Source: Burkholderiales bacterium (lineage in GTDB: Bacteria > Pseudomonadota > Gammaproteobacteria > Burkholderiales > SG8-39). From it: a stretch of DNA of 35,619 bases. Below, in pieces: positions 14,431 to 30,080 of the stretch. A program made the translations under genes and the position numbers. Location of the stretch: NCBI GenBank assembly GCA_919902965.1, contig CAKKSJ010000059.1:1-35619 (forward strand), given 5' to 3'. Under the pieces are notes generated by a model. It made no database searches, had not been told where the DNA came from, and saw only the letters and a list, made by a program, of their open reading frames with translations. Each line of letters starts with the position of its first letter. Within the stretch, counting starts at the first letter, position 1.

Positions 14431-14469
14431 ATGGGGAATAGTGCGCGAATCCGGTAAAATCTTCAAATC

Positions 14470-15219: not shown

Positions 15220-15247
15220 GCGATGATCTGGACCGATTTGGGGGATT

Positions 15248-15271
15248 AACAAGGGGGCGTGCCCCCTTGTT
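15248..15271 (+). terminator. GC-rich hairpin AACAAGGGGG-CGTG-CCCCCTTGTT downstream of the SDR stop
   Basis: 10-bp perfect stem read from the sequence. There is no clean T-run after the stem, so terminator function is uncertain. Confidence 0.35.
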
Positions 15272-15283
15272 CGTCGATCCTGC

Positions 15284-15328
15284 GGGCAGATCATCGCGGT
15301 CGATGGCGGGCGCAGCGTGAACCTCTGA
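15284..15328 (+). repeat. orphan duplicate of the last 14 codons plus stop of the SDR gene (copy of 15175-15219)
   Basis: Both copies translate to GQIIAVDGGRSVNL*. The only differences are at synonymous codons (ggc/ggg, agg/cgc, gtc/gtg, ctt/ctc). Confidence 0.85.
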
Positions 15329-15376: not shown

Positions 15377-16261
15377 ATGCAACTAAACTGGCCATATGAA
15401 GCTGCGACGCCGCCGCGGGCAGGCATCGCCCGGTTTACCCAGCCGGAATCGAATATCTGCCTCGATTTTCACGGCGACCCGCGGGCGGCGCGGCTCGTCG
15501 TGTTCTCAGACGGCAATCATCACATGGCGCTGGCTGAGTCGCTGGCGCTGTTTCGCGCGCGGTATCCGGCGGTCGACGACATTTTCTATACCACCACCCC
15601 GCCGCGCGTGATTGTGGAGGCGTTCGCGTCGGGCGCGCTGTTGCTGGGCAATCTCAAATTGTCACTTGCTCCGCATGTGTTCATCAGCCCGGCGCCGGTA
15701 CTTGAGCGCCTGCGCAAAGACGGTCGCCTGCGCGAGCATGTGCCATTCGTGACCAGCCGCGGCAGCGTGATGTTGCTGCGCAAAGGCAATCCAAAGCGCA
15801 TTTTGGACGCCGCCGATCTTGTGCGCGAGGATGTGCGCATCTTTCTTTCCAACCCGGTGAACGAAAGCGTGAGTTTCGAGGCGTATGTGGCGACGCTGCG
15901 CGCCATCGCAGCCAGCCGCGGGCTCGACTACGGATTTATCGACCCGGCGCCGGGCTCATCGAGGCGCGTGGTGTATGGCGACTGTATCCACCATCGCGAG
16001 GCACCGCAATGCCTGGTCGACGACCGCGCCGATGTAGCGATCGTCTATTATCACCTCGCGTTGCGCTATGTCCGAATATTTCCGGAGTTGTTTGATTTCA
16101 TCGCGTTGACCACCGACGGCGATCCGGCTCAGGTCGTCAGCCCTGCCCACCTGGGACTGGTCGGTGACGGTGGGGAGTGGGGCGTGCGTCTGAGCGAATT
16201 CCTGCTTGGCGACGAGGTTGCCGCGGTGTACCGGTACCACGGCCTCGACCCTGTCCGCTAG
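15377..16261 (+). CDS. periplasmic-binding-protein-fold (ModA/anion-binding-like) protein without a signal peptide
   Basis: 294-aa ORF. LVVFSDGNHH...FISPAP...ADVAIVYYHLA resembles the layout of type II PBP (molybdate/sulfate-binding) proteins. No hydrophobic leader is present. The functional call is weak. Confidence 0.5.
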   Translation: MQLNWPYEAATPPRAGIARFTQPESNICLDFHGDPRAARLVVFSDGNHHMALAESLALFRARYPAVDDIFYTTTPPRVIVEAFASGALLLGNLKLSLAPHVFISPAPVLERLRKDGRLREHVPFVTSRGSVMLLRKGNPKRILDAADLVREDVRIFLSNPVNESVSFEAYVATLRAIAASRGLDYGFIDPAPGSSRRVVYGDCIHHREAPQCLVDDRADVAIVYYHLALRYVRIFPELFDFIALTTDGDPAQVVSPAHLGLVGDGGEWGVRLSEFLLGDEVAAVYRYHGLDPVR

Positions 16262-16299: not shown

Positions 16300-18720
16300 C
16301 TATTTCTTGAACTCGATGAACATCGCCGAGGTCCAGACTTTCGCATCGTCCGTCTGGCGGCCGTAGAAGTAAACCGGCCGGAAGCCGTGAGGGCCGTTGC
16401 GCGGCTCGATTTCGAGCGTGCCCGTGACTTCGCGCGGCGTCGGAGCAGCGGCGATCCGCTCTATCGAAACAAAGAGTTCGCAGCCGCCGAGTTCCAGGCG
16501 CAGCCTGCCCTGGCTGGCGAGCAGTTCCGCGCCGCTCACCTCCCAGTCGAAGCTCGGGCAGTGCACGAAGGGATTGCCGGCGGTCGGATCACCGACCTTG
16601 ACGTAGCTGTCGATGCGACCCGCGACACGGATGCGGCAGCGCGCGAGATTGCTGATATCGACCACCACAGAATCCGAGTCGCCGTAGGTGTCGGTGCGAA
16701 AGCCGATGTCGGTCGGCCCGGCGCGCCAGCACGATTCTTCCGGATGCTCGAAACCGCCGCCGGCGAATGCGTTGATGGTGCCGTTGATGACGCTGACCTT
16801 GCCGCGCCATTCGGCCCAGCGATAGCGGTCGGGGATGCGCGCCCCGCCCCAGCGTATGCGGACTTTACGCGCGCAGAAGCCGGTTTCCTTCTGCAAGTCG
16901 CGATGCCAGATCATGCCGCTGTGGTCGTAGGCCGCGATTTCGTCCCAGCCTTGAAGCCCGAGGAAGCGATAGTCGATTTTCGCCGCAGCTTTCATGGTGA
17001 ACGCGTCGCCCTGAAGGTGCTTGCCGCAGCGGGCGAGGCCGACCAGGCGCTCGCCGCTGGCAGCGAAGGTATGGCGCGCACGCAGCGCGCGCCCCACGGT
17101 GCGGCGGTCGAGCCGGTCGGCGATGATGCCGGTGATGCCGCCCTTGGTGCCGAACACCTGCGTTCCAGGCAGACCGCCGCCGGGGCGGCCGCGGTGCTCG
17201 TCACCGCTGGCCGAGGCGCCGAGCTTGTAGCCGCGCGCGATCACGTCCTGGTAGAGCCAGCCGAAGTGGCCCCAGGCCGAGGTGATCTCGATCAGGCGCT
17301 CCAGTTCGGGGTGGTGCCAGTCCGGGATACAGCGGCGGCCGCCGACGTGCGGCATGATCAGATGGTTCTCGGGATCGTCTATATAGGCGAGCCACAACTC
17401 CTCGATCGGCCAGCGGCCGAGGTCGACCCCGCTGCCCTTCATGTCCTCGTTCCAGGTGAAAGTGCGGTTGTGCTCGCCTTTGGCGTTATACGGGAAGTCG
17501 GGCGTGTCGTCGCCGAGGAACACCACGTTGTGGTCGCCGCCGGCGGTGGAGCTGCCGCACCATTCCTGCACCGGATAGCAGACGAACTCGCCGTCCTTGT
17601 GCAGGGTATGCATGGTCTTCACGCCTAGCTCCCAGTTGGCGTCGGTGATCTGAAAATCATTGGCGGTGTAAGCCATGACGTCCAGACCCGCGATGTCGCG
17701 CCCGTAGCGCGTGTTGTAGTCCGGGCTGTTGGTGCCGACGGTGTCGTGCGCATGAACGTGCAAGTCGCCATAGAATATGCGTGCGCAGGGCGCGTTCTTG
17801 TCCACCGTGACGTAATGCACTGCGCGCAGAACATCCAGCGTACCCGGCATGGCGGCCGTCACCGTCAGTTCGCCGGGCTCGCAGGGCAAATCCCCGATCG
17901 CCGTGGTGGCCCAGCCAGCGGCGTCGAACTCGGCCGCGCCGCGGTAGACTTCCTTGCCCCCGCGCTCTGCCACGATCTCGACTTTGCCGCCGCAGTCGGC
18001 GCAAGCATTGCCCCAGCGGTCGTGCGCGGACAGCCGCAGCTTGATCGGCGTACCCGGCCGCACCAGGCGCGGGCCCATCAGGGACAGGTTTTCGATCGGG
18101 CCGGGGACGATGTCGATCACCACATCGCCGGGCACGGCGACGAAGCGTGAAGTGCCCAAGGGATCGACGTAACAGCGAAAGCGGAACTTGTCTTCGACGA
18201 ATGTCTGGATGCGCGTTCCGGGACCGCCGGCGCGCCGGTCGCCAAGCCGGATGACAATGTGATCGCCGGCATTGAGGTAGCCGTCGACGGTGTCGACGAT
18301 GACGGCTTTCTGAAACGGCCGCTCGTGGCCTTTCTGGTCGAAGCGCACTTTGAGCGACTGCACGCTCGCCGGGCTCTGGCCCGCGACTAGCGCGCCGGCG
18401 TGGTATTCCGCGGAAACGTAGTTCGCGCCGGCCGGATCGACGGTCTGAAACAGCGCCCAGTCCGAGTAGAACTTGAACGTTGCCTTGAACCACGCCCCGT
18501 CGGCCACGCCCGAAGCGCCGATTTCGTAGTCTAGGACAATCTCGGTCCATTGTCCGGCGACCAAGCGCTCGACATTGCAGGTCACCTTGCCGACAAAGGG
18601 CCTCGCCTTGTCCCGGTCGTACAGGCCCGGCGGCGCGACGTAGCGGCCGAGCCGCTTGCGCAGTTCTTTCTCGGTGAGGGCTTGCTTGGCCGTCTGGTGG
18701 AGGTCAGTCATCTTGTTCAC
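16300..18720 (-). CDS. large PHP/CehA-McbA-like metal-dependent hydrolase with an N-terminal beta-sandwich region; function unknown
   Basis: 806-aa ORF with metal-ligand-like motifs FYGDLHVHAHD, GGDHNVVF, MPHVGG and SGDEHRG. The GTG start has AAGGAG 8 nt upstream. There is no signal peptide. Confidence 0.6.
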   Translation of the reverse strand: MNKMTDLHQTAKQALTEKELRKRLGRYVAPPGLYDRDKARPFVGKVTCNVERLVAGQWTEIVLDYEIGASGVADGAWFKATFKFYSDWALFQTVDPAGANYVSAEYHAGALVAGQSPASVQSLKVRFDQKGHERPFQKAVIVDTVDGYLNAGDHIVIRLGDRRAGGPGTRIQTFVEDKFRFRCYVDPLGTSRFVAVPGDVVIDIVPGPIENLSLMGPRLVRPGTPIKLRLSAHDRWGNACADCGGKVEIVAERGGKEVYRGAAEFDAAGWATTAIGDLPCEPGELTVTAAMPGTLDVLRAVHYVTVDKNAPCARIFYGDLHVHAHDTVGTNSPDYNTRYGRDIAGLDVMAYTANDFQITDANWELGVKTMHTLHKDGEFVCYPVQEWCGSSTAGGDHNVVFLGDDTPDFPYNAKGEHNRTFTWNEDMKGSGVDLGRWPIEELWLAYIDDPENHLIMPHVGGRRCIPDWHHPELERLIEITSAWGHFGWLYQDVIARGYKLGASASGDEHRGRPGGGLPGTQVFGTKGGITGIIADRLDRRTVGRALRARHTFAASGERLVGLARCGKHLQGDAFTMKAAAKIDYRFLGLQGWDEIAAYDHSGMIWHRDLQKETGFCARKVRIRWGGARIPDRYRWAEWRGKVSVINGTINAFAGGGFEHPEESCWRAGPTDIGFRTDTYGDSDSVVVDISNLARCRIRVAGRIDSYVKVGDPTAGNPFVHCPSFDWEVSGAELLASQGRLRLELGGCELFVSIERIAAAPTPREVTGTLEIEPRNGPHGFRPVYFYGRQTDDAKVWTSAMFIEFKK

Positions 18721-18751
18721 CTGTGATGCTCCTTATTCGTCGCTCGATAAA

Positions 18752-18790
18752 CCGTGACCGCCGGAGGCAGCCGTCCTCCGGCGGTCACGG
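18752..18790. other. 16-bp perfect stem-loop CCGTGACCGCCGGAGG-CAGCCGT-CCTCCGGCGGTCACGG in a divergent intergenic region
   Basis: Read directly from the sequence. It is flanked by AAA on the left and CTTT on the right. Confidence 0.7.
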
Positions 18791-18847
18791 CTTTACACCG
18801 CTGGCAGCGCTCGGCTACCATTCCAGCAGAGTTTCCACAGGATTGTC

Positions 18848-18863
18848 TGTCAGCCAGCTGACA
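18848..18863. promoter_or_regulatory. palindrome TGTCAGC-CA-GCTGACA ending 8 nt before the first crp-family gene
   Basis: 7+7 inverted repeat read from the sequence. A role as an operator is inference. Confidence 0.25.
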
Positions 18864-18871
18864 TCGCCTCC

Positions 18872-19627
18872 ATGAACCAGAAAGTTATCGCGATATCCAC
18901 GGCGCCGCAGCTTGCGGCCGCCGCAGACGGGACGCACGCCGCCCCGACGCTGATCGCCCCGTCCAATTTTCTGGCCCAGCTCGACGCGAACGAGGCAGCC
19001 GGCCTGCAGGCGATTGCGATAGCGCGCCATTACGCCAAGGGCGACTATGTGTTTCGCTGCGGCGGTCCGGGCCATAACGTCTATTTCCTGCGCAGCGGGA
19101 GGATCAAGATCCATCAGCTTTCGCCGCTCGGGCGCGAGGTGATTCTGTGGTTCTGCTTTTCGGGCGAAATATTCGGGCTCGCCGAAGCGGCGCGCGGCGG
19201 CGAGCGCGCCGTCAACGCGCAGGCTTGCGAGGCGTCCGAAGTGCTGGCGGTCGCACAGGACAAATTTGGGAACTATCTAGACCATCATCCGCATGTGGCG
19301 AAGCTGAGCATGCAGGTGCTGTCCTCGCGCTTGCGCGTGCTGGGCGAAATGTTTGTGAATCTGGTCGCCGATGACGTCAACACGCGCATCGGCAAGCTGA
19401 TACTGCGCTTGAGCGCACGCTACGGAACGCGTGTGGGCAAGGAGATTTTCCTCAACATCCCGCTGACGCACCAGGAGATCGCCGACATGATCGGCACCTC
19501 GCGCCAGACCGTGACCAGCGCGCTGGGCGCGCTGAAGCGGCAGGGGGTGCTGAGCATAGACAATCGCCGCATCCACATCGAAAGCGAGGAACTGTTGAAC
19601 GAGCTTGCGCGCGACGGCGCTCGCTAG
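18872..19627 (+). CDS. Crp/Fnr-family transcriptional regulator (high-GC paralog)
   Basis: A cNMP-binding-like beta-roll (YVFRCGGPGHNVYFLRSGRIKI) plus a C-terminal HTH (LTHQEIADMIGTSRQTVTSAL). There is no FNR-type N-terminal Cys cluster. Confidence 0.85.
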   Translation: MNQKVIAISTAPQLAAAADGTHAAPTLIAPSNFLAQLDANEAAGLQAIAIARHYAKGDYVFRCGGPGHNVYFLRSGRIKIHQLSPLGREVILWFCFSGEIFGLAEAARGGERAVNAQACEASEVLAVAQDKFGNYLDHHPHVAKLSMQVLSSRLRVLGEMFVNLVADDVNTRIGKLILRLSARYGTRVGKEIFLNIPLTHQEIADMIGTSRQTVTSALGALKRQGVLSIDNRRIHIESEELLNELARDGAR

Positions 19628-19711
19628 TGTTTCGGGGGTTCTGCCGGACTGTTTTTTCGGTCGCTCCGGCACGCGCATACCCGGCAACAGGCGCATAATG
19701 GCCGGATAACT

Positions 19712-20392
19712 ATGGACGCTCTGTGGTATCTGCATGAACAAGATTTCTTTTCCGGCTTGAACGCCGAAAAGAAGGCGTTCATCTCTCATTCAAAAAAGAG
19801 ATCCATCAAGAGAAATGTATATCTGTTCAGTCAGGGAGAGGCCGGTGATTCCGTCTTTTATCTCGAGAGCGGCGAGGTGCGGATTTCCCGCCTGACTCCG
19901 CATGGAAAAGAGTCGATTGTATTCATACGGCATGCCGGTGAACTATTCGGTCTGGCCGAAGCCATAGGCGGCGTAGCAAGGACTTGCAGCGCCCAGGCCA
20001 TAAGCGCGTGTCGTTTGTATGAGATTCAGCGAATGGAGCTCGAAGAACTGCTTTCACGGCACTGGGCTCTCTCCAGGCGGGTGATGGAAGTTCTCGGAGG
20101 CCGCTTGAGGTATCTCGGAGAACAGTTGGGCAATTTGATGTCCTGCGACGTGACTACCAGATTGTCGAGACTGCTTTTTTACTTGAGCTGCTATAAGCAG
20201 ATGGATCCCGAAGTCTGGAATGCGTCTGATGCCATCCCGGTGAAACTCACCCAGGAACAAATGGCGTCGATGATAGGATCATGCCAGCAAACCGTAAGCG
20301 CGGTTCTCAAGCAATTCGAGATGGAAGGCCTGATCCGAGTTTCCCGCAATCGTCGGGAAATCATCATCCTCAAACCCGTAAGCCTGGTCTAA
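19712..20392 (+). CDS. Crp/Fnr-family transcriptional regulator (low-GC paralog, first gene of the island)
   Basis: A beta-roll (YLFSQGEAGDSVFYLESGEVRISR) plus an HTH (LTQEQMASMIGSCQQTVSAVL). There is no FNR Cys cluster. It is AT-richer than its neighbour. Confidence 0.85.
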   Translation: MDALWYLHEQDFFSGLNAEKKAFISHSKKRSIKRNVYLFSQGEAGDSVFYLESGEVRISRLTPHGKESIVFIRHAGELFGLAEAIGGVARTCSAQAISACRLYEIQRMELEELLSRHWALSRRVMEVLGGRLRYLGEQLGNLMSCDVTTRLSRLLFYLSCYKQMDPEVWNASDAIPVKLTQEQMASMIGSCQQTVSAVLKQFEMEGLIRVSRNRREIIILKPVSLV

Positions 20393-20719
20393 AGTTATCC
20401 ATAGCGGTTGAGTCAGCTTCTGCCGGTTCCTAATCCGGCAACTATCGTCCAAGCGATAGAACCCACTTGTCAATTAGGGTTATCGTACCGCCAACTTCGG
20501 AGTCCACTGAAATCGTTTTGCGATGATTGGCGACCCGTTCCTGCGTAAAAGATTACCGTCTATCAATCGTCAATCGGCACGGTCTGAGCTCCGGCACTGT
20601 GCATGAGATGCGTTCCAGTCACCCCGGCCCACGCCTTCCGGTCGAAATCCCGGACGGCACGCCGGCCTGAGAGATTATTACCGGCAGGACCTTCCAGATT
20701 CGTCTAAGGAGAAAAGCAT

Positions 20720-21271
20720 ATGAAAAACGCGTTGGTTTCAGCAGTCATGGCCGTATTCTTTTTGGGCATGGGGGGAGTGGCGTCTGCAGCAGACATCACG
20801 CCGAAGATGCAGCAGAAAATCGATGTCTACAAGAAGAAGGCGGTCGAATGGGCCGCTGATGCGAAATTGATAGAAGCGGTGAAGCAGAGCAATGCCAAAG
20901 GCCCGGTGACGGCGAATGCCAAGTGGCGCGAACTGAAGGAAACAGACCCCGTTGTTCAGGGTTTGGTAAGCAGCCCGACAGGCCAGCTTTTGACCCAATG
21001 GATGAATGCCGACGCCAAGGGCATCAACAAAATCGTGCTTAGCGGCGACAAAAGCCACCGCGTCGCATTCACCTCTATGCCGGCCATCTACATCGGCAAG
21101 ACCAAGCCCAATTTCGACGAGTCCTTCGGCGGCAAGGTGTGGCAGCAGGGCGAGTCCAAGCCAGATCCGAGCACTAACATCGATACGGTGCAAATTTCCG
21201 CACCGGTGAAAGATGGAAACAAAATAATCGGCGTGCTTCTTGTCAGCCTCACCGCGGCGAACTTGAAGTAG
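20720..21271 (+). CDS. secreted single Cache/PDC-like ligand-binding protein
   Basis: 183-aa ORF with AAGGAG 8 nt upstream and a signal peptide (...GMGGVASA/AD). The C-terminal ISAPVKDGNKIIGVLLVSL is typical of Cache-fold beta strands. It has no TM or output domain. Confidence 0.6.
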   Translation: MKNALVSAVMAVFFLGMGGVASAADITPKMQQKIDVYKKKAVEWAADAKLIEAVKQSNAKGPVTANAKWRELKETDPVVQGLVSSPTGQLLTQWMNADAKGINKIVLSGDKSHRVAFTSMPAIYIGKTKPNFDESFGGKVWQQGESKPDPSTNIDTVQISAPVKDGNKIIGVLLVSLTAANLK

Positions 21272-21319
21272 GTGGCGATGAAAACGTCCGCAGGAGTAAT
21301 CAATAGAAAGGGAGCGGTT

Positions 21320-22840
21320 ATGAACAAATTGGATACGCCGATTTCCGTCCCGGCCAGTGGCTTCTTCGGCCGGTTCGTAGATAACATTCGTGCACGTGAG
21401 GGCACGCCGGCCAAGACATTGATCGGGTTTTTTGCCGCTTGGGCGGCGTTTTTCTTCATTCTCTGGGTCATGCCGCTACCCGCAGGCATGACCCCCGCCG
21501 GAAAAGCGACCCTGGCGGTTCTGGTATGGGCCACGATCATGTGGATAACCGAAGCCATACCCGTCGGTGTATCAGGACTGATTATTCCCATGCTTCTGGT
21601 TATGGGCGGGGCGGCCGCCAAGTTTCCGGCAGCCGCAAGCGGTTTCGCTCAACCCGTTGCTTTCCTGACCCTGGCGGCGTTCTTGTTTGCCGCCATCATT
21701 CAAGCCGCCGGACTCGATCGGCGTATTGCCATCACGCTGATGAAAAAATTTCGCGTAAAAGAAGTCGGCGGTGTGATTTGGGCGATGTTCGGCGTCAACC
21801 TGGTGCTGTCGTTCATCATCCCGGCGGCGAACGCCAGGGCTGCCACTTTGCTGCCGGTCGTGAACGGCATTACCAGCTTGTTTGGCGACACGCCGGAGGA
21901 GCGCGCCGGAAAGAAAGCGATAGTCATACAGTCGCTGGTGTACGGCTCGATGATCAGCGGCATGTGCATCATGACCGCGCATCTGCCCAATCTGATTCTG
22001 GTGGGGCTGTTTGACACGGAACTGGGCTACACCCTCTCGTATTTCAACTGGTTCCTGCTGCAATGGCCTTACCTGGGCATGTTTGTCATAACGCAGTGGT
22101 GGGTGCAACACTACTTCAAGACGCGCGGAGTCATGATCCCCGGCGGTTTGGAAAAAGTAAGGGAAATGCACACACAACTGCCCAAAACCAGCCAGACGGA
22201 ATGGTTGATATTGGCGGTATTCGCGCTGGTCGGGCTGCTGTGGATGACGGAGTCCGTTCATCACATTAAGGCGCAGAACGCGGCCTTGATGGGCATTGCG
22301 ATTGCCTTCATTCCGGGGATGTTCGACTTCAAATGGAAAATGCTCCAGGACCGGACGATCTGGGGGACATGGTTGCTGCTGGCCGGCGCCTTGTCCATGT
22401 CCGCCACCATGGGGACCTCCGGTCTGGCGGGATGGCTGGCCGACGTGATTCACCCTGTTGCCGCAGGGCGTTCGTGGTGGCTAATCCTGCTCATACTCAT
22501 GGTTGGCACGCATATCATCCGGCTGGGAATGCTGTCCAATATCGCGGCCATCGCCATGCTGGCACCCGTGCTGATAGCGCTGGGGCCCAAGTTCGGGCTG
22601 CATCCGGTTGCTTTCACCATGCTCATTTCCGATACGGATACCTTTGCCTATATCCTGCCGACGCAGATTACCGCCGCGGTTATCGCCTACAGCAGCGGCA
22701 CCTTCAGCATGGCGGATTATGCCAAGGTGGGATGGGTGTCTGTGCTCATCGCCATTGCCTACGGCATCCTGGTCATGGCGCCCTGGTACGCGTTTATGGG
22801 TATTCCGGTCTGGAATCCTTCAGCACCCTGGCCATTCTGA
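21320..22840 (+). CDS. SLC13/DASS-family anion:cation symporter
   Basis: The start is set at ATG 21320 (AGGGAG 5 nt upstream; the ORF-track start at 21272 directly abuts the previous stop codon). It is a polytopic protein with duplicated hairpin motifs (PAANARAATLLPV and LPTQITAAV) of the kind seen in DASS/ArsB-NhaD superfamily permeases. Confidence 0.8.
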   Translation: MNKLDTPISVPASGFFGRFVDNIRAREGTPAKTLIGFFAAWAAFFFILWVMPLPAGMTPAGKATLAVLVWATIMWITEAIPVGVSGLIIPMLLVMGGAAAKFPAAASGFAQPVAFLTLAAFLFAAIIQAAGLDRRIAITLMKKFRVKEVGGVIWAMFGVNLVLSFIIPAANARAATLLPVVNGITSLFGDTPEERAGKKAIVIQSLVYGSMISGMCIMTAHLPNLILVGLFDTELGYTLSYFNWFLLQWPYLGMFVITQWWVQHYFKTRGVMIPGGLEKVREMHTQLPKTSQTEWLILAVFALVGLLWMTESVHHIKAQNAALMGIAIAFIPGMFDFKWKMLQDRTIWGTWLLLAGALSMSATMGTSGLAGWLADVIHPVAAGRSWWLILLILMVGTHIIRLGMLSNIAAIAMLAPVLIALGPKFGLHPVAFTMLISDTDTFAYILPTQITAAVIAYSSGTFSMADYAKVGWVSVLIAIAYGILVMAPWYAFMGIPVWNPSAPWPF

Positions 22841-23005
22841 GTGGCGATTCGAGTTGAAGTCCTCCGCGCAACCATGGCCGGAGGACTGCAAGGGGAAATT
22901 AAATCCAGCAAGTGCCATTCGGGTTCAAGGTCATCGCTACCTGTCGGTTCCCGGACTTAGTGCTTCCAGCACGGCTACGAAATAAATTTGACGGAGCTTG
23001 AAACA

Positions 23006-24841
23006 ATGAAAAAAGATCTCCCAAAAACCATCGCCGAGGTTGAAGAGATAAGGATAGAGACCGATCTCCTTATCATCGGCGGAGGCAACTCCGGTTGCTT
23101 TGTCGCGATCGAGGCGAAGGAGAAGAACCCCAACATCGATGTGACCATCATGGAAAAGGCGCACATCGACCGCAGCGGCGCCCTGGCCGCGGGCATGGAT
23201 GCCATCAATACCTATATCGGCGAAGGCGAGACGCCGGAATCGATCGTCGCCTGGAGCCGGGCGCAGGTCGGTGGCGGCCCCCTGAGAGAAGACCTTGCCC
23301 TGAGCAATGCCGCTATCCTGAACCAGTGCGTGGAGTCTCTCGAAGCCTGGGGAGTGCCGTTCAAAAAAGACGAGAAGGGTAGATACAAGAGAAGGGGAAG
23401 ATTCGATATCTCCATTCATGGAGAACAGTTGAAGCCGATCATCGCCGAGAAGACGAAGAGCTACAACCCACGGATATTGAACCGGGTTGCGGCGACCAAT
23501 TTGCTCAAAGACGGAGACCGCGTCATCGGCGCCACGGGCTTCGGCATCAGGGACGGCAAATTTTACGTAATCAAGGCCAAGGCCACCATCGTGTCTACCG
23601 GCGGCGCCGCCGGCCTGTACCGTTCGGCGACCAACGACGGCACAACCTCGCACCACCAGATGTGGATGAACCCTTTCAACGTGGGCACGGGATATGCCAT
23701 AGGCATCAGGGCCGGTGCCGAGTTTACGCTCATGGAACAGCGCTGGTGCGCGACCAGGGTGAAGGATTTCTGCGGACCGGTGGACACCATCTCCGTAGGC
23801 TACAAGGCGAAAATGATCAACGCCAAGGAAGAGTTGATCCTGGATTCACCGCGATACCGCGGTCTCGGAGGCGACACGGCGCCGCGTTACATACGGGCCA
23901 ACGCGCCCATGAGCGAATGGAGCGAAGGCAGAGGGCCGACCTTCGTGGATACGCGCCAACTCTCTCCGGGCCAGGTCAAGGACCTCAAGATCGACTATCT
24001 CAACGAACGGCCTACCTATGTGCTTTTCCTGGCGGCACGGGGGCAGGATCCGGCGAAAGAGCCCCTGGAAATCTACGGCAGCGATCCCTACATCGTCGGC
24101 GGTCACACGGCCAGCGGCTACTGGGTCGATGGCGACAGAATGGCGACCCTTGCGGGCCTGTTCGCGGCCGGCGAGTGCGCGGGCGGGATGCCGAACAAGT
24201 TTGTCGGCGGATGCGCGGCGGAGGGAGTCCTCGCCGCGCGCGGGACGCTAAAGCATATCTCGGGCATGGATCACGGCAACGTCGATCAAAATCAGGTCGC
24301 GGCGGAAAAGGAAAGGGTGTTCGCGCCGCTCTTGCGCGGCGCGACCATGGAAGCCAAATACACCCTGCCCGTCGGGCAGGACCCGCGCTGGCAGTATGAC
24401 GCAGTCACGCCGGAGGAGATGGAGGAGCGGCTGCAAAGACTCATGGACGAGTACGCCGGCGGGGTGGGCCAGTTCTTCAAGTGCAACGAGGAGCAGCTCA
24501 ACTACGCCCTCAAGCATATCGGGATGATGAAGAAACAGGTGAACAAGCTGTTTGCGACCAGCCTGCACGATCTCGTCCTTGTCCACGACGTTGTCGACCG
24601 TCTCGACGTCGCCGAGGTGGTGGTCCTGCATTTGCGCGAGAGAAGGGAGTGCAGATGGCCCGGTTGGCAGACGCGGAGCGATTACCCCGAGGTCGATCCG
24701 AGCCTCGACTGTTACATCAACTCGAGAAAGAATCTCGAGACGGGCGAGATCGAGATGCTGAAACGGCCTTACCAGCAGGTTCTTCCCGGGGACCGGACGA
24801 AGGCTCCGTCGCCGATTCCGCTTTCCGCAGAGAAGGCATAA
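23006..24841 (+). CDS. adenylylsulfate (APS) reductase alpha-subunit-like FAD flavoprotein, divergent
   Basis: The start is set at ATG 23006 (GGAG upstream; the ORF track begins at TTG 22988). It has the dinucleotide fold DLLIIGGGNSG. Blocks SGALAAGMDAINTYIG, MEQRWCATRVKDFCGPV, EGRGPTFVDT, DPYIVGGHTASGYW, DEYAGGVGQFF and ERRECRWPGWQTRSDYP...KRPYQQVLPGD align by eye with AprA blocks I remember, including the AprA-specific C-terminal domain. Confidence 0.75.
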   Translation: MKKDLPKTIAEVEEIRIETDLLIIGGGNSGCFVAIEAKEKNPNIDVTIMEKAHIDRSGALAAGMDAINTYIGEGETPESIVAWSRAQVGGGPLREDLALSNAAILNQCVESLEAWGVPFKKDEKGRYKRRGRFDISIHGEQLKPIIAEKTKSYNPRILNRVAATNLLKDGDRVIGATGFGIRDGKFYVIKAKATIVSTGGAAGLYRSATNDGTTSHHQMWMNPFNVGTGYAIGIRAGAEFTLMEQRWCATRVKDFCGPVDTISVGYKAKMINAKEELILDSPRYRGLGGDTAPRYIRANAPMSEWSEGRGPTFVDTRQLSPGQVKDLKIDYLNERPTYVLFLAARGQDPAKEPLEIYGSDPYIVGGHTASGYWVDGDRMATLAGLFAAGECAGGMPNKFVGGCAAEGVLAARGTLKHISGMDHGNVDQNQVAAEKERVFAPLLRGATMEAKYTLPVGQDPRWQYDAVTPEEMEERLQRLMDEYAGGVGQFFKCNEEQLNYALKHIGMMKKQVNKLFATSLHDLVLVHDVVDRLDVAEVVVLHLRERRECRWPGWQTRSDYPEVDPSLDCYINSRKNLETGEIEMLKRPYQQVLPGDRTKAPSPIPLSAEKA

Positions 24842-24930
24842 GGAATAGAAACGCAGGAATTCGTGTCCAGGATTTCATTCTGCCCTGCCGGTCTCGGCCG
24901 CGGATTGCTTAACTTACAGAGGACAAACAC

Positions 24931-25257
24931 ATGCCGGTCTATGTCGTAAAAGATAAATGCGATGGGTGCAAGGGAAAGGACGAACCCCTGTGCGAGCAGA
25001 TATGCATCGGCGACCTCATGACCTTGAACGCGGACACGGGAAAGGCGTACTGCCGCTCCCTCAGGGATTGCTGGGACTGCATGTCCTGCACCAAGATATG
25101 CCCCAAGGGGGCCATAGAGCAGCGCATTCCCTATCAGCTCGGATACCACGGCGCGAAGCTCATTCCCATGATGGGCACCGACTCCATAACCTGGACCTGC
25201 GTCGACATCGACGGCAAGGTGGAGAGATTTTCCTTTCGCACGAGAAACAAACACTGA
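24931..25257 (+). CDS. APS reductase beta-subunit-like 2x[4Fe-4S] ferredoxin, short form
   Basis: 108 aa with AGAGGA 7 nt upstream. MPVYVVKDKCDGCKGKDEPLCEQIC and CWDCMSCTKICPKGAI mirror the two AprB cluster motifs, including the Trp in CW(E/D)C. It lacks the long C-terminal tail of canonical AprB. Confidence 0.7.
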   Translation: MPVYVVKDKCDGCKGKDEPLCEQICIGDLMTLNADTGKAYCRSLRDCWDCMSCTKICPKGAIEQRIPYQLGYHGAKLIPMMGTDSITWTCVDIDGKVERFSFRTRNKH

Positions 25258-25272
25258 ACCGCCTGCCGCCCT

Positions 25273-27381
25273 ATGAGCGATATCACAATCGGCGTCTTCC
25301 TCTGCAGCTGCGCAGGCGAAATTGAAAAGACGATCGCTCTCGACGTGCTCGCACAGGAGGCATCCGGGCGACCCGGGGTGGTCTCCGTCAGCAAGGATTC
25401 CTGTCTCTGTTCGGAACGCGGAATAGACGCCATACGGGAAGACATCAACAAGTACGAACTCGATCGGGTGCTGATCGCGGCCTGTTCGCCTGCCCTGAAA
25501 ACCAGAGAATTCGCGGATCTCGGCATCAACAAATATCTGGTCGAGCGCGTGAACTTGCGCGAGCAATGCAGCCGGTGCCATCCCGATAGTCCCGAAAATG
25601 CGACAAAAAAGGCAAGGGCGATGCTGGCGATGTCTTTGGAGAAAATCAGGCACTCCAAAGCCCTCGAACCGGTAGTGGTGCCCGCGGTCAAGACGGCGCT
25701 GGTGGTGGGCGGAGGGGTTGCCGGCATCAATGCCGCTCTTGACCTGGCGGGAGCGGGCGCCGAGGTGTTCCTGATCGAAAAGAACCCTCATCTCGGCGGG
25801 AAGGTATCCGAACTGCACCGCTATTATCCCCGCCTGTGCCCGCCGTCCTGCGGACTGGAACTCATGTATTCCAGGCTGGAGAGTAACCCGCACATTCATG
25901 TCCTTACCTCGTCCGAGGTTGAGAACCTGAGCGGCTCGCCGGGTAATTTTTCTGTTTCAATAAAGACCACCTCGTCCGACGCAATCAAATCTCCGGAAAA
26001 GGATCAGGTGCGTACGATCATCGCCGGTGCCGTTGTTGTCGCAACCGGATGGGAACCTTTTGATCCGACGCCGCTTAGCGAATACGGCTACGGCAGACTC
26101 GCAAAGGTCATCACGAACCTGGATTTCGAAAGAAACGCCCGGGAACAGGCGCAATTCCTCGGGCAACGGAAGAAAACCGCCTTTATACAATGCGTCGGCA
26201 GCCGCGATGAACGCCATCTGCCGTACTGCTCCGATGTCTGCTGCATGGTAAGCATCAAGCAAGCGCTTTTGCTCAAACAGGCCAATCCCGATAACGAGGT
26301 AACTATTTATTACAACGATATCCGGACGCCGGGCGAGTACGAAGCTGTGTACCGACAGGCGAGAGCCAGCGGGATACATTTTGTTAAAGGCATCCCTTCC
26401 GAACTGCGACAGGACGCGCAGGGAAGAATAAGCGTTGCCGTATTCGACCTCATAGCAGGCGAAAGGACCGAATTCGCCGCCGACCTGGTTGTACTCGCGA
26501 CCGGTATGAAAGCTTCCCGCGGAACGACGGCGCTGAAGAACGCAATCGGCCTGGCCACGAACAAAGACGACTTCATCGAGTCGCACTTGCAATGTCATCC
26601 CCAGGACAGCCAGCGGGAGGGCATATTTACCGCCGGCTGCTGCCGCGCGCCCATGGACGTCTCGAGGTCGATCGAGAGCGCAGGAGCGGCGAGCGCCAAG
26701 GCGCTGCGCTATCTTCAAGGCGAAATTGCGGTCAGTCCCGATTATCCGGTCGTCGATATCCTGAAGTGCGACCGCTGCAAACGCTGCGTGGAGGAGTGTC
26801 CGTTCAAGGCCTACGCCTACGATGACAAGGGATTTCCGCAAGTTGATATTCTCAAGTGCCGCGCCTGCGGCATCTGCATGGGGGGCTGCCCCATCGGCGC
26901 GATTTCGCTCGGCGAACTCGGCATAGAGCAACTTTCGGGAATGTTAGACGTCCTGGACACGTCCTATCTTGGAGAGGATGAACCGGTAATCCTCGGATTT
27001 CTGTGCAAGAACGACGCCTACCGGGCGGCGGATGACGCGGGACTGAACAGCATCTCCTACCCACCAAACCTGATCAGCGTCATGGTCCCCTGCTCGGGCG
27101 CCGTGAACGGCATGATCATCTCCGAGGCCATTTCAAAAGGCGTGGACGGGATTCTGCTCGCCGGATGCGCCGATAACCAGTGTCATTATCTGCACGGGAG
27201 CACGCTGGCAAAAACGAGATTGGCGGATGTCTCGAACAAGCTCAAGGAGATGTATCTGGAGCCTGAAAGAGTCCGCTTCGCGAGCATAGGCAGGGACGAT
27301 CCGGAGAAGTTTGCCGCGACGGTAAAGGAATATGTAGAGGAGCTGAAGCAGTTGGGGAAAAATCCGCTGAGGATCCAGTGA
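25273..27381 (+). CDS. HdrA/QmoB-like FAD and FeS protein with a C-terminal MvhD-like domain
   Basis: 702 aa. It combines an HdrA N-domain (IGVFLCSCAGEI...AACSP...REQCSRCH), an FAD motif (VVGGGVAGINAALDLAG), the HdrA cluster motif QCVGSRDERHLPYCSDVCC, a 2x[4Fe-4S] ferredoxin (CDRCKRCVEECP, CRACGICMGGCP), and an MvhD-like end (FLCKNDAY...VPCSGAVN...LLAGC...CHY). No inserted ferredoxin domain is present. Confidence 0.8.
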   Translation: MSDITIGVFLCSCAGEIEKTIALDVLAQEASGRPGVVSVSKDSCLCSERGIDAIREDINKYELDRVLIAACSPALKTREFADLGINKYLVERVNLREQCSRCHPDSPENATKKARAMLAMSLEKIRHSKALEPVVVPAVKTALVVGGGVAGINAALDLAGAGAEVFLIEKNPHLGGKVSELHRYYPRLCPPSCGLELMYSRLESNPHIHVLTSSEVENLSGSPGNFSVSIKTTSSDAIKSPEKDQVRTIIAGAVVVATGWEPFDPTPLSEYGYGRLAKVITNLDFERNAREQAQFLGQRKKTAFIQCVGSRDERHLPYCSDVCCMVSIKQALLLKQANPDNEVTIYYNDIRTPGEYEAVYRQARASGIHFVKGIPSELRQDAQGRISVAVFDLIAGERTEFAADLVVLATGMKASRGTTALKNAIGLATNKDDFIESHLQCHPQDSQREGIFTAGCCRAPMDVSRSIESAGAASAKALRYLQGEIAVSPDYPVVDILKCDRCKRCVEECPFKAYAYDDKGFPQVDILKCRACGICMGGCPIGAISLGELGIEQLSGMLDVLDTSYLGEDEPVILGFLCKNDAYRAADDAGLNSISYPPNLISVMVPCSGAVNGMIISEAISKGVDGILLAGCADNQCHYLHGSTLAKTRLADVSNKLKEMYLEPERVRFASIGRDDPEKFAATVKEYVEELKQLGKNPLRIQ

Positions 27382-27382
27382 G

Positions 27383-27823
27383 ATGGACAATGCACTCATT
27401 GACGGAGCAAGCCTGAAATCCTGCTATCGCTGCGGAAAATGTACTTCCGGCTGCGAGGTGAACCGCATCGATCCTTCATTTCAACCGCACAGGCTGCTTC
27501 AGCTCATCGCCAGGGGCGCGGTGGATGAACTCATCGATGGCGACGCAATTTGGAAATGCACGACCTGTTTCACCTGTGCCGAGAGATGTCCGCAGGGAAT
27601 AGCGGTAACCGATATTCTCTGGAGCTTGAGGGCGCTGGCGTTTAGATCCTGCCGTAACTCGGGGCTGCTCGAGGCGCAAAAGGCTGCCCTGTTCAAGACC
27701 GGCAGGCTGTATCCGGTGACTGGCCTTGACCATAAGAAACGCGAGAAGGCGGGGCTTCCTCCTCTGGCGGAGAACGCAACTCTCATAAGCCGCATATTTG
27801 ATGCAGCGAAAGCGGGCGGATAG
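27383..27823 (+). CDS. heterodisulfide reductase subunit C-like 2x[4Fe-4S] protein
   Basis: 146 aa with CYRCGKCTSGCE and CTTCFTCAERCP motifs. The start is 2 nt after the upstream stop. Confidence 0.8.
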   Translation: MDNALIDGASLKSCYRCGKCTSGCEVNRIDPSFQPHRLLQLIARGAVDELIDGDAIWKCTTCFTCAERCPQGIAVTDILWSLRALAFRSCRNSGLLEAQKAALFKTGRLYPVTGLDHKKREKAGLPPLAENATLISRIFDAAKAGG

Positions 27824-27828
27824 TTATT

Positions 27829-28692
27829 ATGAAATACGCCTTATACCTGGGCTGTGCAACGCCGGTCAGGGCCCTGAAATACGAAATATCGACCAGAAAC
27901 GTGGCCAAACGTCTGGGCATAGAACTCGTCGACCTTCCTGAATTCAGCTGCTGCGGGTTTCCGGTCAAGTCTATGGATCTGTTTGCCGCGCTGCTCATGG
28001 CTGCCCGCAATCTCGCCCTGGCGGAAGAGCGCGGTCTGGACATCATAGGCTTGTGCACCGGATGCGTAGCGGTCCTGTCGGAAGCGAAACTGCAATTGGA
28101 AGATGAGAAGCTGAGGGACAGGGTCAACGAGAAGCTGAAGACGCTGGGAGTACCGGAATACCGCCAGGGGGTCGGCGTCAAGCATTTTGCGAGATTCTTG
28201 AACGAGGATTACGGACTTGATGCGCTGAGCAAAGAGATCGGCGCCCCGTTAAAGTCTTTGAAGTTTGGCATTCATTATGGCTGCCATTATGCGAAGCCGA
28301 GCCATGCGCATGATCACTTTGATGACCCGTCAAACCCTGTCTCGCTTGACAAACTGATACAGGGCGCCGGCGCAGAGACGATCGACTACCCGGAGAAAAA
28401 CCTCTGCTGCGGCCTGACGATCCGGGGCGCAGCCGAAGATGTAAGCGTGAAGCTCGCCGCGGAAAAGCTCGAAGCCCTGTCGAACAGAGGGGCCGACGCC
28501 ATGGTGGTCGCTTGTCCCTCCTGCTGCATTGCCTATGAAAACAATCAACAGCTGGCCGGAAGAAAAATGGGAAAAGAATTCAAGCTCCCGGTCGTTTATT
28601 TTACCCAGGTACTCGGCTGTGCCCTGGGGCTGAAGGAAGAGGATCTCGGGTTTGAGTTCAACCGGGTTGAATTTCACCCGGCTGCGCGCTAA
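27829..28692 (+). CDS. heterodisulfide reductase subunit B-like protein with two CCG domains
   Basis: 287 aa with two Cys-rich CCG repeats (GC...SCCGFP...CTGC and GCHY...LCCGL...CPSCC). Confidence 0.8.
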   Translation: MKYALYLGCATPVRALKYEISTRNVAKRLGIELVDLPEFSCCGFPVKSMDLFAALLMAARNLALAEERGLDIIGLCTGCVAVLSEAKLQLEDEKLRDRVNEKLKTLGVPEYRQGVGVKHFARFLNEDYGLDALSKEIGAPLKSLKFGIHYGCHYAKPSHAHDHFDDPSNPVSLDKLIQGAGAETIDYPEKNLCCGLTIRGAAEDVSVKLAAEKLEALSNRGADAMVVACPSCCIAYENNQQLAGRKMGKEFKLPVVYFTQVLGCALGLKEEDLGFEFNRVEFHPAAR

Positions 28693-28862
28693 AGATCACC
28701 TGCTAGCCTGCAGCTTTTCTTAAAAATCAGCGCTTGCCGTTTGCAGTGGTGAGAGCAGACCCTCCTCGAGCGAATTCCGCCCCCGGAAATCGGGCTTGCA
28801 GTGCAGGCCGCGGGGCGGTATCGTCGCTCGACCTTGCAGTTCGAACCGGCCAATTCTTTCCC

Positions 28863-29765
28863 ATGAACGCCCCCGACCACAAGCAATTGGAAAAACAGCG
28901 CTACGAAGCGAACAAGCTGGAGAAACGCCTGTGCCGCCTCGCCGGGCAGGCGATCGCCGATTTCAATATGATCGGCGCGGGCGAGCGCGTCATGGTCTGC
29001 CTGTCCGGCGGCAAGGACAGTTACGGCCTGCTCGACGTACTGTTGAAGCTGCGCGCGCGCGCGCCGGTCGAGTTCGACATCGTCGCCGTGAATCTCGACC
29101 AGAAGCATCCGGGCTATCCGGCGCATGTGCTGCCCGATTACCTGAAGTCGCTGGGCATCGAATTTGTGATCGCGGAGCAGGACACTTATTCGACGGTCAA
29201 GCGCCTGATACCCGAAGGCAAGACCATGTGCTCGCTGTGCTCGCGCCTGCGCCGCGGCGTGCTCTACCGCCTGGCGGGTGAACTCGGCGCCACCAGGATC
29301 GCGCTGGGCCATCATCGCGACGACATCCTGGAAACCTTTTTCCTGAATCTGTTCTTCGGCGGCAAGCTGAAAGCCATGCCGCCGAAGCTCGGCTCGGACG
29401 ACGGCAAGCATGTGGTGATCCGCCCGCTCGCCTATGTGAAAGAAAAAGACCTTGCGCGCTACGCCGAGGCGCGCGCCTTTCCCGTCATACCCTGCGACCT
29501 GTGCGGCTCGCAGGACCAGTTGCAGCGCAAGCAGGTGAAACAACTGCTGCGGCAGTGGGAAAAGGAATTTCCGGGCCGGGTTGAAACCATATTTAACAGC
29601 CTGCAGCGGGTCGCGCCCTCTCACTTGCTGGACCGCACTCTATTTGATTTTCCAGCGGTTTTCGCCACCGGTGTGGTGGTGGATGGCGGAGATAAAGCCT
29701 TTGATGCAGAGGACTTTTCCGCTTTTGCGACCGCCATGCCGAGGCCCACGCCGACAGCCGACTAG
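28863..29765 (+). CDS. ttcA: tRNA 2-thiocytidine(32) synthetase
   Basis: The start is set at MNAPDHKQ (ATG 28863). It has the PP-loop CLSGGKDS, the [10 protein letters not shown] and CDLCGSQ Cys motifs, and a HHRDD motif. The antisense 311-aa ORF is rejected. Confidence 0.9.
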
Positions 29766-29813: not shown

Positions 29814-29819
29814 TTGTGC

Positions 29820-30080
29820 ATGAATTGCGCTGAGCGATTGGTATCGATTTTCGGCAGCCAGGCCGAGGTGGCGCGGCGCTTGCGCCTGGATCGCGCAGTC
29901 GTCAATAACTGGGTCAAGTCCGGTTATGTTCCGGCGCGCTGGGCGATGGAAGTCGAGCATGCCACCGAGGGCAAAGTGGCCGCGGTCGAAGTGCTCAACG
30001 AAGCCAATGCGAAAAAACCGGTTCGAGTCAAATCGCGCCCCGACGATCTGTTCGGGTCGCATCTTCCAGGGAGTGACAGC
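29820..30080 (+). CDS. Cro/YdaS-like (DUF1019-type) HTH segment with no stop codon of its own; reads in frame into the aminotransferase
   Basis: MNCAERLVSIFGSQAEVARRLRLDRAVVNNWVKSGYVPARWAMEVEHATEGKV...RPDDLF resembles YdaS/Cro-type small repressors. There is no stop before ATG 30081. It may be a fusion, a lost stop, or a sequencing issue. Confidence 0.5.

Follow-up and report, generated by a model that had tools for sequence, protein, structure and literature searches.

The window analyzed here is a 35,619-nucleotide (nt) stretch of contig CAKKSJ010000059.1 from the Burkholderiales bacterium assembly GCA_919902965.1, and it carries on its forward strand two adjacent genes whose products resemble the α (AprA) and β (AprB) subunits of the dissimilatory adenosine 5′-phosphosulfate (APS) reductase. 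The pair almost certainly belongs to the tail-less AprAB-like family and falls, on sequence comparison, in a distinct clade, termed window-type below, which stands apart from the canonical enzymes and from those related to the structurally characterized reductase for 3′-phosphoadenosine 5′-phosphosulfate (PAPS) of Methanothermococcus thermolithotrophicus (MtPAPSR). The explanation considered best, by a modest balance of probability, is that the enzyme performs sulfite chemistry at the N5 atom of its flavin adenine dinucleotide (FAD) on an APS-like sulfonucleotide and passes the electrons via heterodisulfide reductase (Hdr)-like proteins. The parts of this explanation differ in strength: the sulfite-adduct chemistry is highly probable, physical coupling to the Hdr proteins is fairly likely, and the APS-type substrate is a tentative assignment with chances somewhat short of even.

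The α protein is 611 amino acids (aa) long when counted from its ATG, according to both the list of open reading frames (ORFs) and the raw sequence, and ends with a TAA at 24839-24841. An in-frame TTG at 22988 would lengthen it to 617 aa, but this start is less likely because a GGAG lies 9 nt 5′ of the ATG. After an 89-nt spacer the β ORF (108 aa) begins with a ribosome-binding site of its own, an AGAGGA that ends 8 nt 5′ of the β ATG. A previous interpretation of this DNA by a model, made from the letters and the ORFs and hereafter called the sequence-only reading, had described this arrangement of an α-like before a β-like gene, and both the ORFs and the sequence bear it out. All the motifs that it quoted are present as well, namely AINTY, ATRVKD, W-MNPFNVGTGY, GGHTASG and GVPF in α, and two four-cysteine motifs and DCWDC in β. 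The spacer has no significant RNA structure, since it folds like shuffled sequence (z = 0.62), and scans for promoters and terminators returned background levels only.

Among solved structures, MtPAPSR is the best match of α (8A8O_A, E = 7e-145, 45% identity), and the AprA of Archaeoglobus fulgidus (1JNR_A) is matched with E = 2e-97 and 37% identity. The protein passes NF005331 (584.5 bits vs a cut-off of 557), a second NCBI model that is also named "adenylyl-sulfate reductase subunit alpha", and fails the aprA equivalog TIGR02061 (378.4 bits vs 641.75). The β protein matches 1JNR_B with E = 1e-25 over residues 1-105 of each, and fails the aprB model TIGR02060 (93.6 bits vs 135.65) in an alignment that spans model positions 1-106 of 132. 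Its 108 aa compare with 150 in 1JNR_B, 166 in 3GYX_B and 104 in the Mt β chain 8A8O_C, so that, given the lengths of the two solved canonical chains, the C-terminal tail is missing; the match stops where the canonical chains run on into their tails, just as the sequence-only reading had proposed. It was also right that α is shorter than usual: compared with A. fulgidus AprA, the difference consists mainly of five deletions totaling ~41 aa, at A. fulgidus (Af) positions ~79-84, 302-308, 339-345, 358-361 and 407-423.

Two further features of the chains are recorded here as observations in their own right. At α ~447-464 (window ~24344-24397) there is an insertion of 16-18 aa, TMEAKYTLPVGQDPRWQY, which is missing, by direct comparison, in MtPAPSR and in the 595-aa protein P0075; it probably accounts for the 610/611 aa of the window and Nitrospirota subclade vs the 583 aa of other window-type proteins. 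The β subunit has a ninth cysteine, Cys42 (window 25054-25056, motif KAYCRS), six residues before the cluster-binding C48, which is kept in at least 95% of window-type β subunits and corresponds to Asn in the AprB of A. fulgidus and M. gigas, and to Ile in Mt β.

Paralogues of this kind were described as "AprAB-like" by Neukirchen and Sousa in 2021 (DiSCo, PMC8477390). There, the AprB-like protein is without the terminal tail, the capping and helical domains of the AprA-like protein contain gaps, and the pair is reported from 63 complete genomes, with Clostridia, Deltaproteobacteria and Nitrospira as the taxa; a role in sulfur assimilation was proposed, and the neighbors listed are sat, cysC, cysD, asr, TusA and sodium:sulfate symporters. 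The only characterized relative is MtPAPSR (PDB 8A8O; Jespersen et al. 2023, PMC10322725), which forms an α2β2 tetramer without the β tail and releases sulfite at 0.114 U/mg with PAPS vs 0.007 with APS, a preference ascribed to K120, R121 and S122 on the loop 104-123.

Against this background, the features that had been singled out as unusual turn out to be ordinary. Neighborhoods were mapped for 80 species-representative loci and four others, giving 84 window-type loci, and β follows α, on the same strand and adjacent, in 83 of them, as well as in the window and in the loci of Mt and of Clostridium intestinale; in the single exception (L066) the contig stops at α. The A-then-B order is therefore the standard architecture of the family. 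The β length is 101-115 aa across the 84 β ORFs recovered (window included), and a tail-less β of ~108 aa with a compacted α is the family norm and was described in the DiSCo paper (PMC8477390). The sequence-only reading had itself stated that it would be refuted if a short AprB in A-B order proved common in characterized APS reductases, and essentially this arrangement exists in MtPAPSR, which has a 562-aa α followed by a 104-aa tail-less β. Gene order, tail-less β and compacted α are thus already published, and the remaining interest is in the window-type clade, its pocket signature, its wiring to other genes and its transfer. A limited literature search, with the DiSCo supplement outside it, found no description of the window-type clade or of an Hdr-linked AprAB-like locus.

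A protein search with α returned thousands of relatives. The closest, at 80-93% identity, are from metagenome-assembled genomes (MAGs) of Nitrospirota, Thermodesulfovibrionia and Dissulfurispiraceae, and a block at 60-67% identity comprises sulfate reducers and their relatives (Desulfobaccales, Desulfocapsaceae, Desulfarculus, Solidesulfovibrio, Desulfocurvibacter africanus, Desulfovirgula, Desulfofundulus and Desulfosporosinus). The search against representatives at 50% identity yielded 179 clusters at E <= 1e-30. An alignment and a neighbor-joining tree of representatives divide the α proteins into three classes, all with the catalytic N, W, R, R and H: canonical (motifs xGxWQ and VGL), Mt-type (RG[KRP]RS and TGQ) and window-type (RGx[WF]D and [VI]DV), the last being monophyletic in the tree.

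The catalytic residues link the window-type class to known chemistry. In HMMER and MAFFT alignments N68, W220, R251, R297 and H367 of α correspond to Af N74, W234, R265, R317 and H398, and none of the five varies in 120/120 close relatives of the family. The Asn, Arg, Trp and His counterparts that the sequence-only reading had picked out by eye are therefore homologous positions of A. fulgidus AprA.

The pocket residues, in contrast, set the clade apart. Af E141, Q145 and G274 are replaced by R130, D134 and D260, each invariant in 120/120 window-type sequences, and the MtPAPSR equivalents of these three are R118, S122 and G246. Af V273/G274 and L278 become V259/D260 and V264, which are fixed throughout the clade; of these positions, E141, V273/G274 and L278 reportedly have roles in APS binding. 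For Q145, and for the invariance of the APS-coordinating residues in dissimilatory enzymes, the source is PMC10322725. The triplet K120/R121/S122 of MtPAPSR is R132/F133/D134 in the window and, clade-wide, a variable residue, W or F, and an invariant D, and its T245/G246/Q250 are V/D/V. The segment GPV.T..V is also invariant in the window-type clade. With R130, D134 and D260 invariant, a variable residue at the position of K120 and W or F at that of R121, the pocket matches neither characterized type. These replacements, together with the failure at both the aprA and the aprB equivalog cut-offs, agree with the suggestion of the sequence-only reading that the pair is a paralogue with a different nucleotide pocket. 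An Asp at D134 argues against PAPS as the substrate, since this is the position of the Ser that accommodates the 3′-phosphate in the work of Jespersen et al.; judged from its position, D134 could bind the free ribose diol instead.

An AlphaFold2 (AF2) model of α was built from 14 sequences (predicted local distance difference test (pLDDT) score of 67, with the pocket loops below 50) and serves for comparison at the level of the fold only. At that level its Foldseek TM-score is 0.77 to 8A8O_A, 0.66 to 1JNR_A and ~0.6 to flavoproteins of succinate dehydrogenase (SDH) and fumarate reductase (FRD). This similarity, the membership of α in the fumarate reductase superfamily, and the DASS and TctABC transporter families found beside the pair, which according to their family descriptions typically carry di- and tricarboxylates, would fit an oxidoreductase of dicarboxylates (fumarate/succinate-type) whose substrate comes in through a carboxylate transporter. 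Such an enzyme is extremely unlikely here. The FRD/SDH models score far under their cut-offs (PRK08275 at 292 vs 587, another at 108 vs 567, and the others at <=194 bits vs 528-1196), the Apr-specific Asn and Trp are invariant, and the identity to FRD/SDH is ~17%, vs the 45% to MtPAPSR. The fumarate-type reading was ruled out by the curated scores and by this low identity.

The name that NF005331 confers in the style of the PGAP pipeline, "adenylyl-sulfate reductase subunit alpha", would make the pair a bona fide dissimilatory AprBA that is merely mis-ordered and truncated. The conserved catalytic residues are in keeping with it, the sequence of β resembles A. fulgidus AprB more strongly (94 bits) than Mt β (59 bits), and a 2026 survey found that canonical AprB is also C-terminally truncated in several orders (PMC12998232). 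It is nevertheless very improbable, as both equivalog models are failed, the clade is separate from canonical AprA, and E141, Q145 and G274 are replaced. Neither qmoC nor aprM nor sat was found in the window or in the window-type loci, and no qmo gene is linked. To our knowledge, the sulfate reducers that have this pair also carry canonical aprBA. The curated model scores and the clade placement ruled out the canonical reading.

Closer to the best structural match is an assimilatory PAPS reductase like MtPAPSR, in which imported sulfate, activated elsewhere to PAPS, would be reduced to sulfite for biosynthesis. MtPAPSR is the closest characterized relative and its R118 is conserved as R130; the DiSCo paper proposed an assimilatory role for AprAB-like proteins, with sodium:sulfate symporters among their neighbors (PMC8477390). 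A PAPS-type sulfotransferase (PF13469) lies beside the transporter in four window-type loci, L001 (7868-9007), L021, L026 and L046, and, speculatively, such an enzyme run in reverse could make PAPS from a sulfate ester. The specificity triplet, however, reads R/F/D here, with the Asp where the 3′-phosphate was modeled, and the genomic context differs. The Mt locus consists of ATP sulfurylase (ATPS), a DHH-type PAP-phosphatase (PAPP), APS kinase (APSK), TauE, α (562 aa) and β (104 aa), and the linkage to APSK and ATPS (plus PAPP) is present in L088 and L089, APSK being directly adjacent in the Mt-type loci, whereas tblastn with Mt and Clostridium queries detected no ATPS, APSK, PAPP or CysD within ~10 kb of α in the 84 window-type loci; the window, too, lacks this linkage. 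Moreover, the clade occurs chiefly in dissimilatory sulfate reducers, and these organisms make sulfide in excess. An assimilatory PAPS reductase is, all told, quite unlikely.

The explanation preferred here, as named at the outset, can be spelled out as follows. The heterodimer of α (FAD) and β (two [4Fe-4S] clusters) would be the catalytic head of a module that runs Crp, p183, DASS, α, β, HdrA(MvhD), HdrC and HdrB. Reduced FAD would attack the sulfuryl group through N5, giving an FAD-N5-sulfite adduct from which sulfite would be released, or the reaction would run in reverse; this chemistry is proposed because α keeps, by homology, the full catalytic set of the APS/PAPS reductases. The substrate would be an APS-type sulfonucleotide held in the reshaped ribose/adenine pocket, where the Arg in contact with adenosine monophosphate (AMP; Af R317) is invariant. 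The β subunit has both cluster motifs and the Trp implicated in electron transfer, and from its clusters the electrons would pass to the MvhD domain fused to HdrA, to the HdrA flavin, and on to the thiol/disulfide site of HdrBC, to ferredoxin or to both, although the direction may differ. Such a path is suggested by synteny and by the solved Mvh/Fdh-Hdr complexes, in which MvhD bridges a hydrogenase or a formate dehydrogenase to the HdrA flavin. The DASS protein would supply the anion, for which sulfate is the simplest guess.

The HdrA(MvhD), HdrC and HdrB genes, with DASS and Crp upstream, had gone unmentioned in the sequence-only reading and carry most of the remaining interest. They follow β closely, with gaps of 15 nt between β and HdrA, 1 nt between HdrA and HdrC, and 5 nt between HdrC and HdrB. 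The HdrA-like protein matches the methanogen HdrA 8rvu_a with E = 5.5e-105, and its residues 567-700 match the MvhD chains of solved Hdr complexes with E = 1e-18 to 3e-23. Both CxxCxxCxxxC motifs of HdrC and both CX(n)CCX(n)CxxC motifs of HdrB are intact, and the domain make-up is that of HdrABC-MvhD: an HdrA with FAD and iron-sulfur (FeS) domains plus MvhD, an HdrC with two clusters and an HdrB with two CCG domains. All three proteins stay below the equivalog cut-offs (585 vs 1100 bits for HdrA2, 238 vs 345 for HdrB, TIGR03288, and 91.8 vs 160 for HdrC), and by these scores they do not qualify as a CoB-CoM heterodisulfide reductase proper. In the related loci, an MvhD-domain protein comes after β in ~49 of ~80, made up of 44 with an HdrA-like protein and 5 Bacillota loci with a 397-aa FeS-MvhD protein; HdrC and HdrB follow in 21-23 loci, and FloxA-like NAD-binding proteins occur in 7.

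Several points weigh against this explanation. The AF2 model of α is poor precisely at the capping and pocket loops. The pocket is unlike both characterized types, with Af Q145/Mt S122 and Af G274 each turned into an invariant Asp and Af E141 into Arg. With no ATP sulfurylase or APS kinase within ~10 kb of α in any of the 84 loci, the synteny gives no sign of a connection to activated sulfate. Nor is the transport component constant: DASS and TctCBA both occur, as do binding proteins of the NMT1/phosphonate type and a cytoplasmic protein with PF13531, and TctCBA in particular is not known as a sulfate system. Hdr is not obligatory, because about half of the loci are without Hdr genes. Finally, the APS/sulfite couple lies at ~-60 mV and needs no bifurcating partner.

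Some of these points can be turned into a different proposal, namely that the substrate is no nucleotide but a sulfo-anion, such as thiosulfate, a sulfate ester or a sulfonate, which the linked transporter would bring in and the pair would reduce with low-potential electrons from Hdr, releasing sulfite. Interchangeable transporters (DASS, TctCBA) with NMT1/phosphonate-type and cytoplasmic PF13531 binding proteins, the lack of sulfate-activation genes within ~10 kb in the 84 loci, and a pocket reshaped by two invariant Asp residues would all be in keeping with such a substrate, as would the occurrence of the clade in taxa rich in thiosulfate or sulfur disproportionators, for example, Desulfocapsaceae and Dissulfurispiraceae. 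The energetics would also fit: the MvhD arm in solved Hdr complexes serves couples at ~-400 mV (H2, formate), and the reduction of thiosulfate to sulfite and sulfide lies at ~-400 mV too. However, the invariance of the AMP-contacting Arg (Af R317) and of the GPV.T..V segment speaks for a nucleotide site that has been kept, activity on such substrates is not known from any member of the superfamily, half of the loci are without Hdr genes, and the thermodynamic argument is unspecific, since Qmo/HdrA-like proteins serve the canonical APS reductase at ~-60 mV. A sulfo-anion reductase is therefore considered unlikely. Its most specific form, that the whole window-type clade is a cytoplasmic, Hdr-coupled (confurcating) reductase of a sulfo-anion taken up from outside (thiosulfate or a sulfate ester, for example), working by FAD-N5 chemistry without ATP-dependent activation, is a long shot. 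If true, sulfate reducers and disproportionators would have an additional, ATP-free way into sulfite reduction, which in this case has moved into a Burkholderiales genome.

The features of the module and of its surroundings are collected in Table 1.

Table 1. Features of the window and the evidence for each assignment (window coordinates)
Feature	Position	Strand	Evidence
Cytoplasmic PF13531 oxyanion-binding-type protein, possibly associated	15377..16261	+	SBP_bac_11 E = 1.6e-15, weak CysP/Sbp matches
Crp/Fnr-family transcriptional regulator, first gene of module	19712..20392	+	cNMP_binding and HTH_Crp_2 domains
p183, 183-aa predicted secreted protein	20720..21271	+	signal-peptide-like N-terminus, no Pfam/NCBIfam family
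DASS-family anion importer (Na+/sulfate or dicarboxylate symporter type)	21272..22840	+	PF00939 E = 3e-63
Stem-loop in DASS-α spacer, right after DASS stop	22854..22891	+	13-nt arms, 92% complementary
AprA-like FAD subunit (α, 611 aa), window-type clade	23006..24841	+	NF005331, 8A8O_A, clade signature
AprB-like ferredoxin subunit (β, 108 aa), two [4Fe-4S] motifs, DCWDC, β-hairpin, no C-terminal tail	24931..25257	+	1JNR_B match
HdrA-like flavo-iron-sulfur protein with fused C-terminal MvhD, 702 aa	25273..27381	+	FlpD/MvhD domain residues 573-695, E = 9.5e-38
HdrC-like, two [4Fe-4S] motifs	27383..27823	+	Fer4_8, Fer4_17, TIGR03290 91.8 bits
HdrB-like, two CCG domains, last gene of module	27829..28692	+	PF02754 x2, E = 6e-25

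Upstream of the pair lies the importer: the DASS protein passes the TIGR00785 dass cut-off (202.5 bits), and a DASS gene lies directly 5′ of α in 53 of ~80 loci. In 10-11 loci without DASS its place is taken by TctC/TctB/TctA, and 11 loci have binding proteins of the NMT1/phosphonate type. The start codon of DASS abuts the stop codon of p183, a protein that may assist the importer in the periplasm. Homologues of p183 were found solely in the two closest Nitrospirota loci (L005 and L012), which have the same DASS type, and at the same position; a single-sequence AF2 model of it (pLDDT 50) is too poor to classify. The cytoplasmic PF13531 protein encoded further upstream, of a type that binds sulfate, thiosulfate or molybdate, is harder to place. 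A signal peptide is missing, the gene stands 3.4 kb 5′ of the transferred block and 4.3 kb from crp, and its link to the module is uncertain because its GC content matches that of the host; homologues with PF13531 stand directly beside a DASS or TctA gene in six loci (L009, L028, L031, L033, L056 and L080).

A Crp-family gene is near α in 66 of ~80 related loci. In the window two Crp/Fnr-family genes stand in tandem, one at 18872-19627 with a host-like GC content of 0.63 and the one that opens the module, with 0.52. A search for the FNR-box TTGAT-N4-ATCAA with <=2 mismatches gave 18 matches vs 8.5 expected and none in the Crp-p183 or DASS-α spacers, so that no regulator site can be assigned. 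An Rfam scan of 18700-29000, judged by E-value, revealed no riboswitch or other RNA family that would point to a ligand. The stem-loop between DASS and α has equivalents in L005 (9906-9941) and L012 (9025-9061), in which the outer arms, TGAAGTCCT...AGGACTTCA-like, are constant and the inner stem and loop have changed. Since no T-run follows it, this predicted hairpin may be an element of mRNA processing or stability between the importer and α.

The ~9-kb module, from Crp through HdrB, looks horizontally acquired, and this view is based on the Burkholderiales flanks, the limits of similarity and a shift in GC content. PhaC is 91% identical to proteins of Burkholderiales MAGs, and the block OsmC, ACAD, thiolase, ACAD, MBL and PhaC is syntenic with two Burkholderiales contigs, in which the module is not present within 10 kb downstream of phaC, its side here. 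At the nucleotide level, the match to the nearest Nitrospirota locus (L005) sets in at 19672; in other loci the similarity stops at ~28665-28690 (in L012 and L013 at ~28665), and similarity to Nitrospirota loci is confined to 19672-28690. The GC content of the module is 0.52-0.60 vs 0.59-0.66 in the flanking host genes. The closest relatives are from Nitrospirota, with 93% (α) and 95% (β) identity to L005, and, together with the lower GC content, they indicate a transfer between phyla.

Three other ORFs of the window were noted in passing. At 29814-31337 a 507-aa ORF joins a Cro/YdaS-type helix-turn-helix (residues 8-61) to a class-V aminotransferase like PhnW or BhcA (108-497), and is either a true fusion or the product of an over-extended TTG start. 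On the reverse strand, 16300-18720 encodes 806 aa for which neither a family match nor a homologue in the related loci compared was found, and 13282-15294 encodes 670 aa with a Methyltransf_28 match in the C-terminal part only.

The clade matters beyond this contig. Surveys of sulfur cycling that are based on aprA can miscount, because thousands of its proteins carry the automatic name "adenylyl-sulfate reductase subunit alpha" and occur in sulfate reducers already equipped with the canonical enzyme. Furthermore, its sole characterized relative is a methanogen PAPS reductase whose specificity residues are not shared here. Answers about the substrate and about docking to Hdr would show whether flavin-based Hdr machinery serves a sulfur-oxyanion step outside Qmo/Dsr, and might also explain the mobility of the module into a Burkholderiales genome.

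Compared with known systems, the pair is most easily placed among the AprAB-like paralogues of DiSCo and NF005331, with which it shares the tail-less β, the shortened capping and helical region of α, the α-then-β order and the symporter neighbors. It differs from them in that the published assimilation neighbors (sat, cysC, cysD, asr and TusA) are absent from window-type loci, while the Hdr genes, Crp regulators and TctABC of these loci are not mentioned in the passages of the DiSCo paper that were consulted. MtPAPSR is the best match in sequence and in fold, and has the same gene order, the same catalytic N, W, R, R and H, and an Arg (R118) equivalent to R130. It belongs, however, to a different clade, with K120/R121/S122 and T245/G246/Q250 in place of R/F/D and V/D/V, and its locus of ATPS, PAPP, APSK, TauE, α and β is unlike that of the window, which runs from Crp, p183 and DASS through α and β to HdrACB. 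With the canonical AprBA of A. fulgidus (1JNR/2FJA) and M. gigas (3GYX), the pair has in common the FAD and two [4Fe-4S] clusters, the catalytic residues and the Trp of CWxC; unlike them, it shows five deletions in α, no β tail, replacements of E141, Q145 and G274, a reversed gene order and no link to Qmo, AprM or Sat.

For the electron-transfer side, the nearest precedent is the aprBA-qmoAB-hdrCB arrangement, a soluble electron-supply module in which one HdrA-like protein has an MvhD-like domain. In both cases an Apr-type enzyme stands beside an HdrA-like protein with an MvhD domain, HdrC and HdrB. Unlike aprBA-qmoAB-hdrCB and QmoABC, the window has a single HdrA(MvhD) instead of QmoA and QmoB, and the partner is the tail-less paralogue. 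The arrangement of Apr beside HdrA-like protein(s), HdrC and HdrB is known from Gram-positive sulfate reducers (PMC10504309). The Mvh/Fdh-HdrABC complexes and the methanogen HdrA2B2C2 are likewise related, as HdrA, HdrB, HdrC and MvhD are homologous with their cofactor motifs intact, and the fusion of MvhD to HdrA is as in HdrA2. In contrast to the Mvh/Fdh-HdrABC complexes, the proteins of the window score under the equivalog cut-offs, and at the MvhD arm a sulfite-forming flavoenzyme would take the place of the hydrogenase or formate dehydrogenase.

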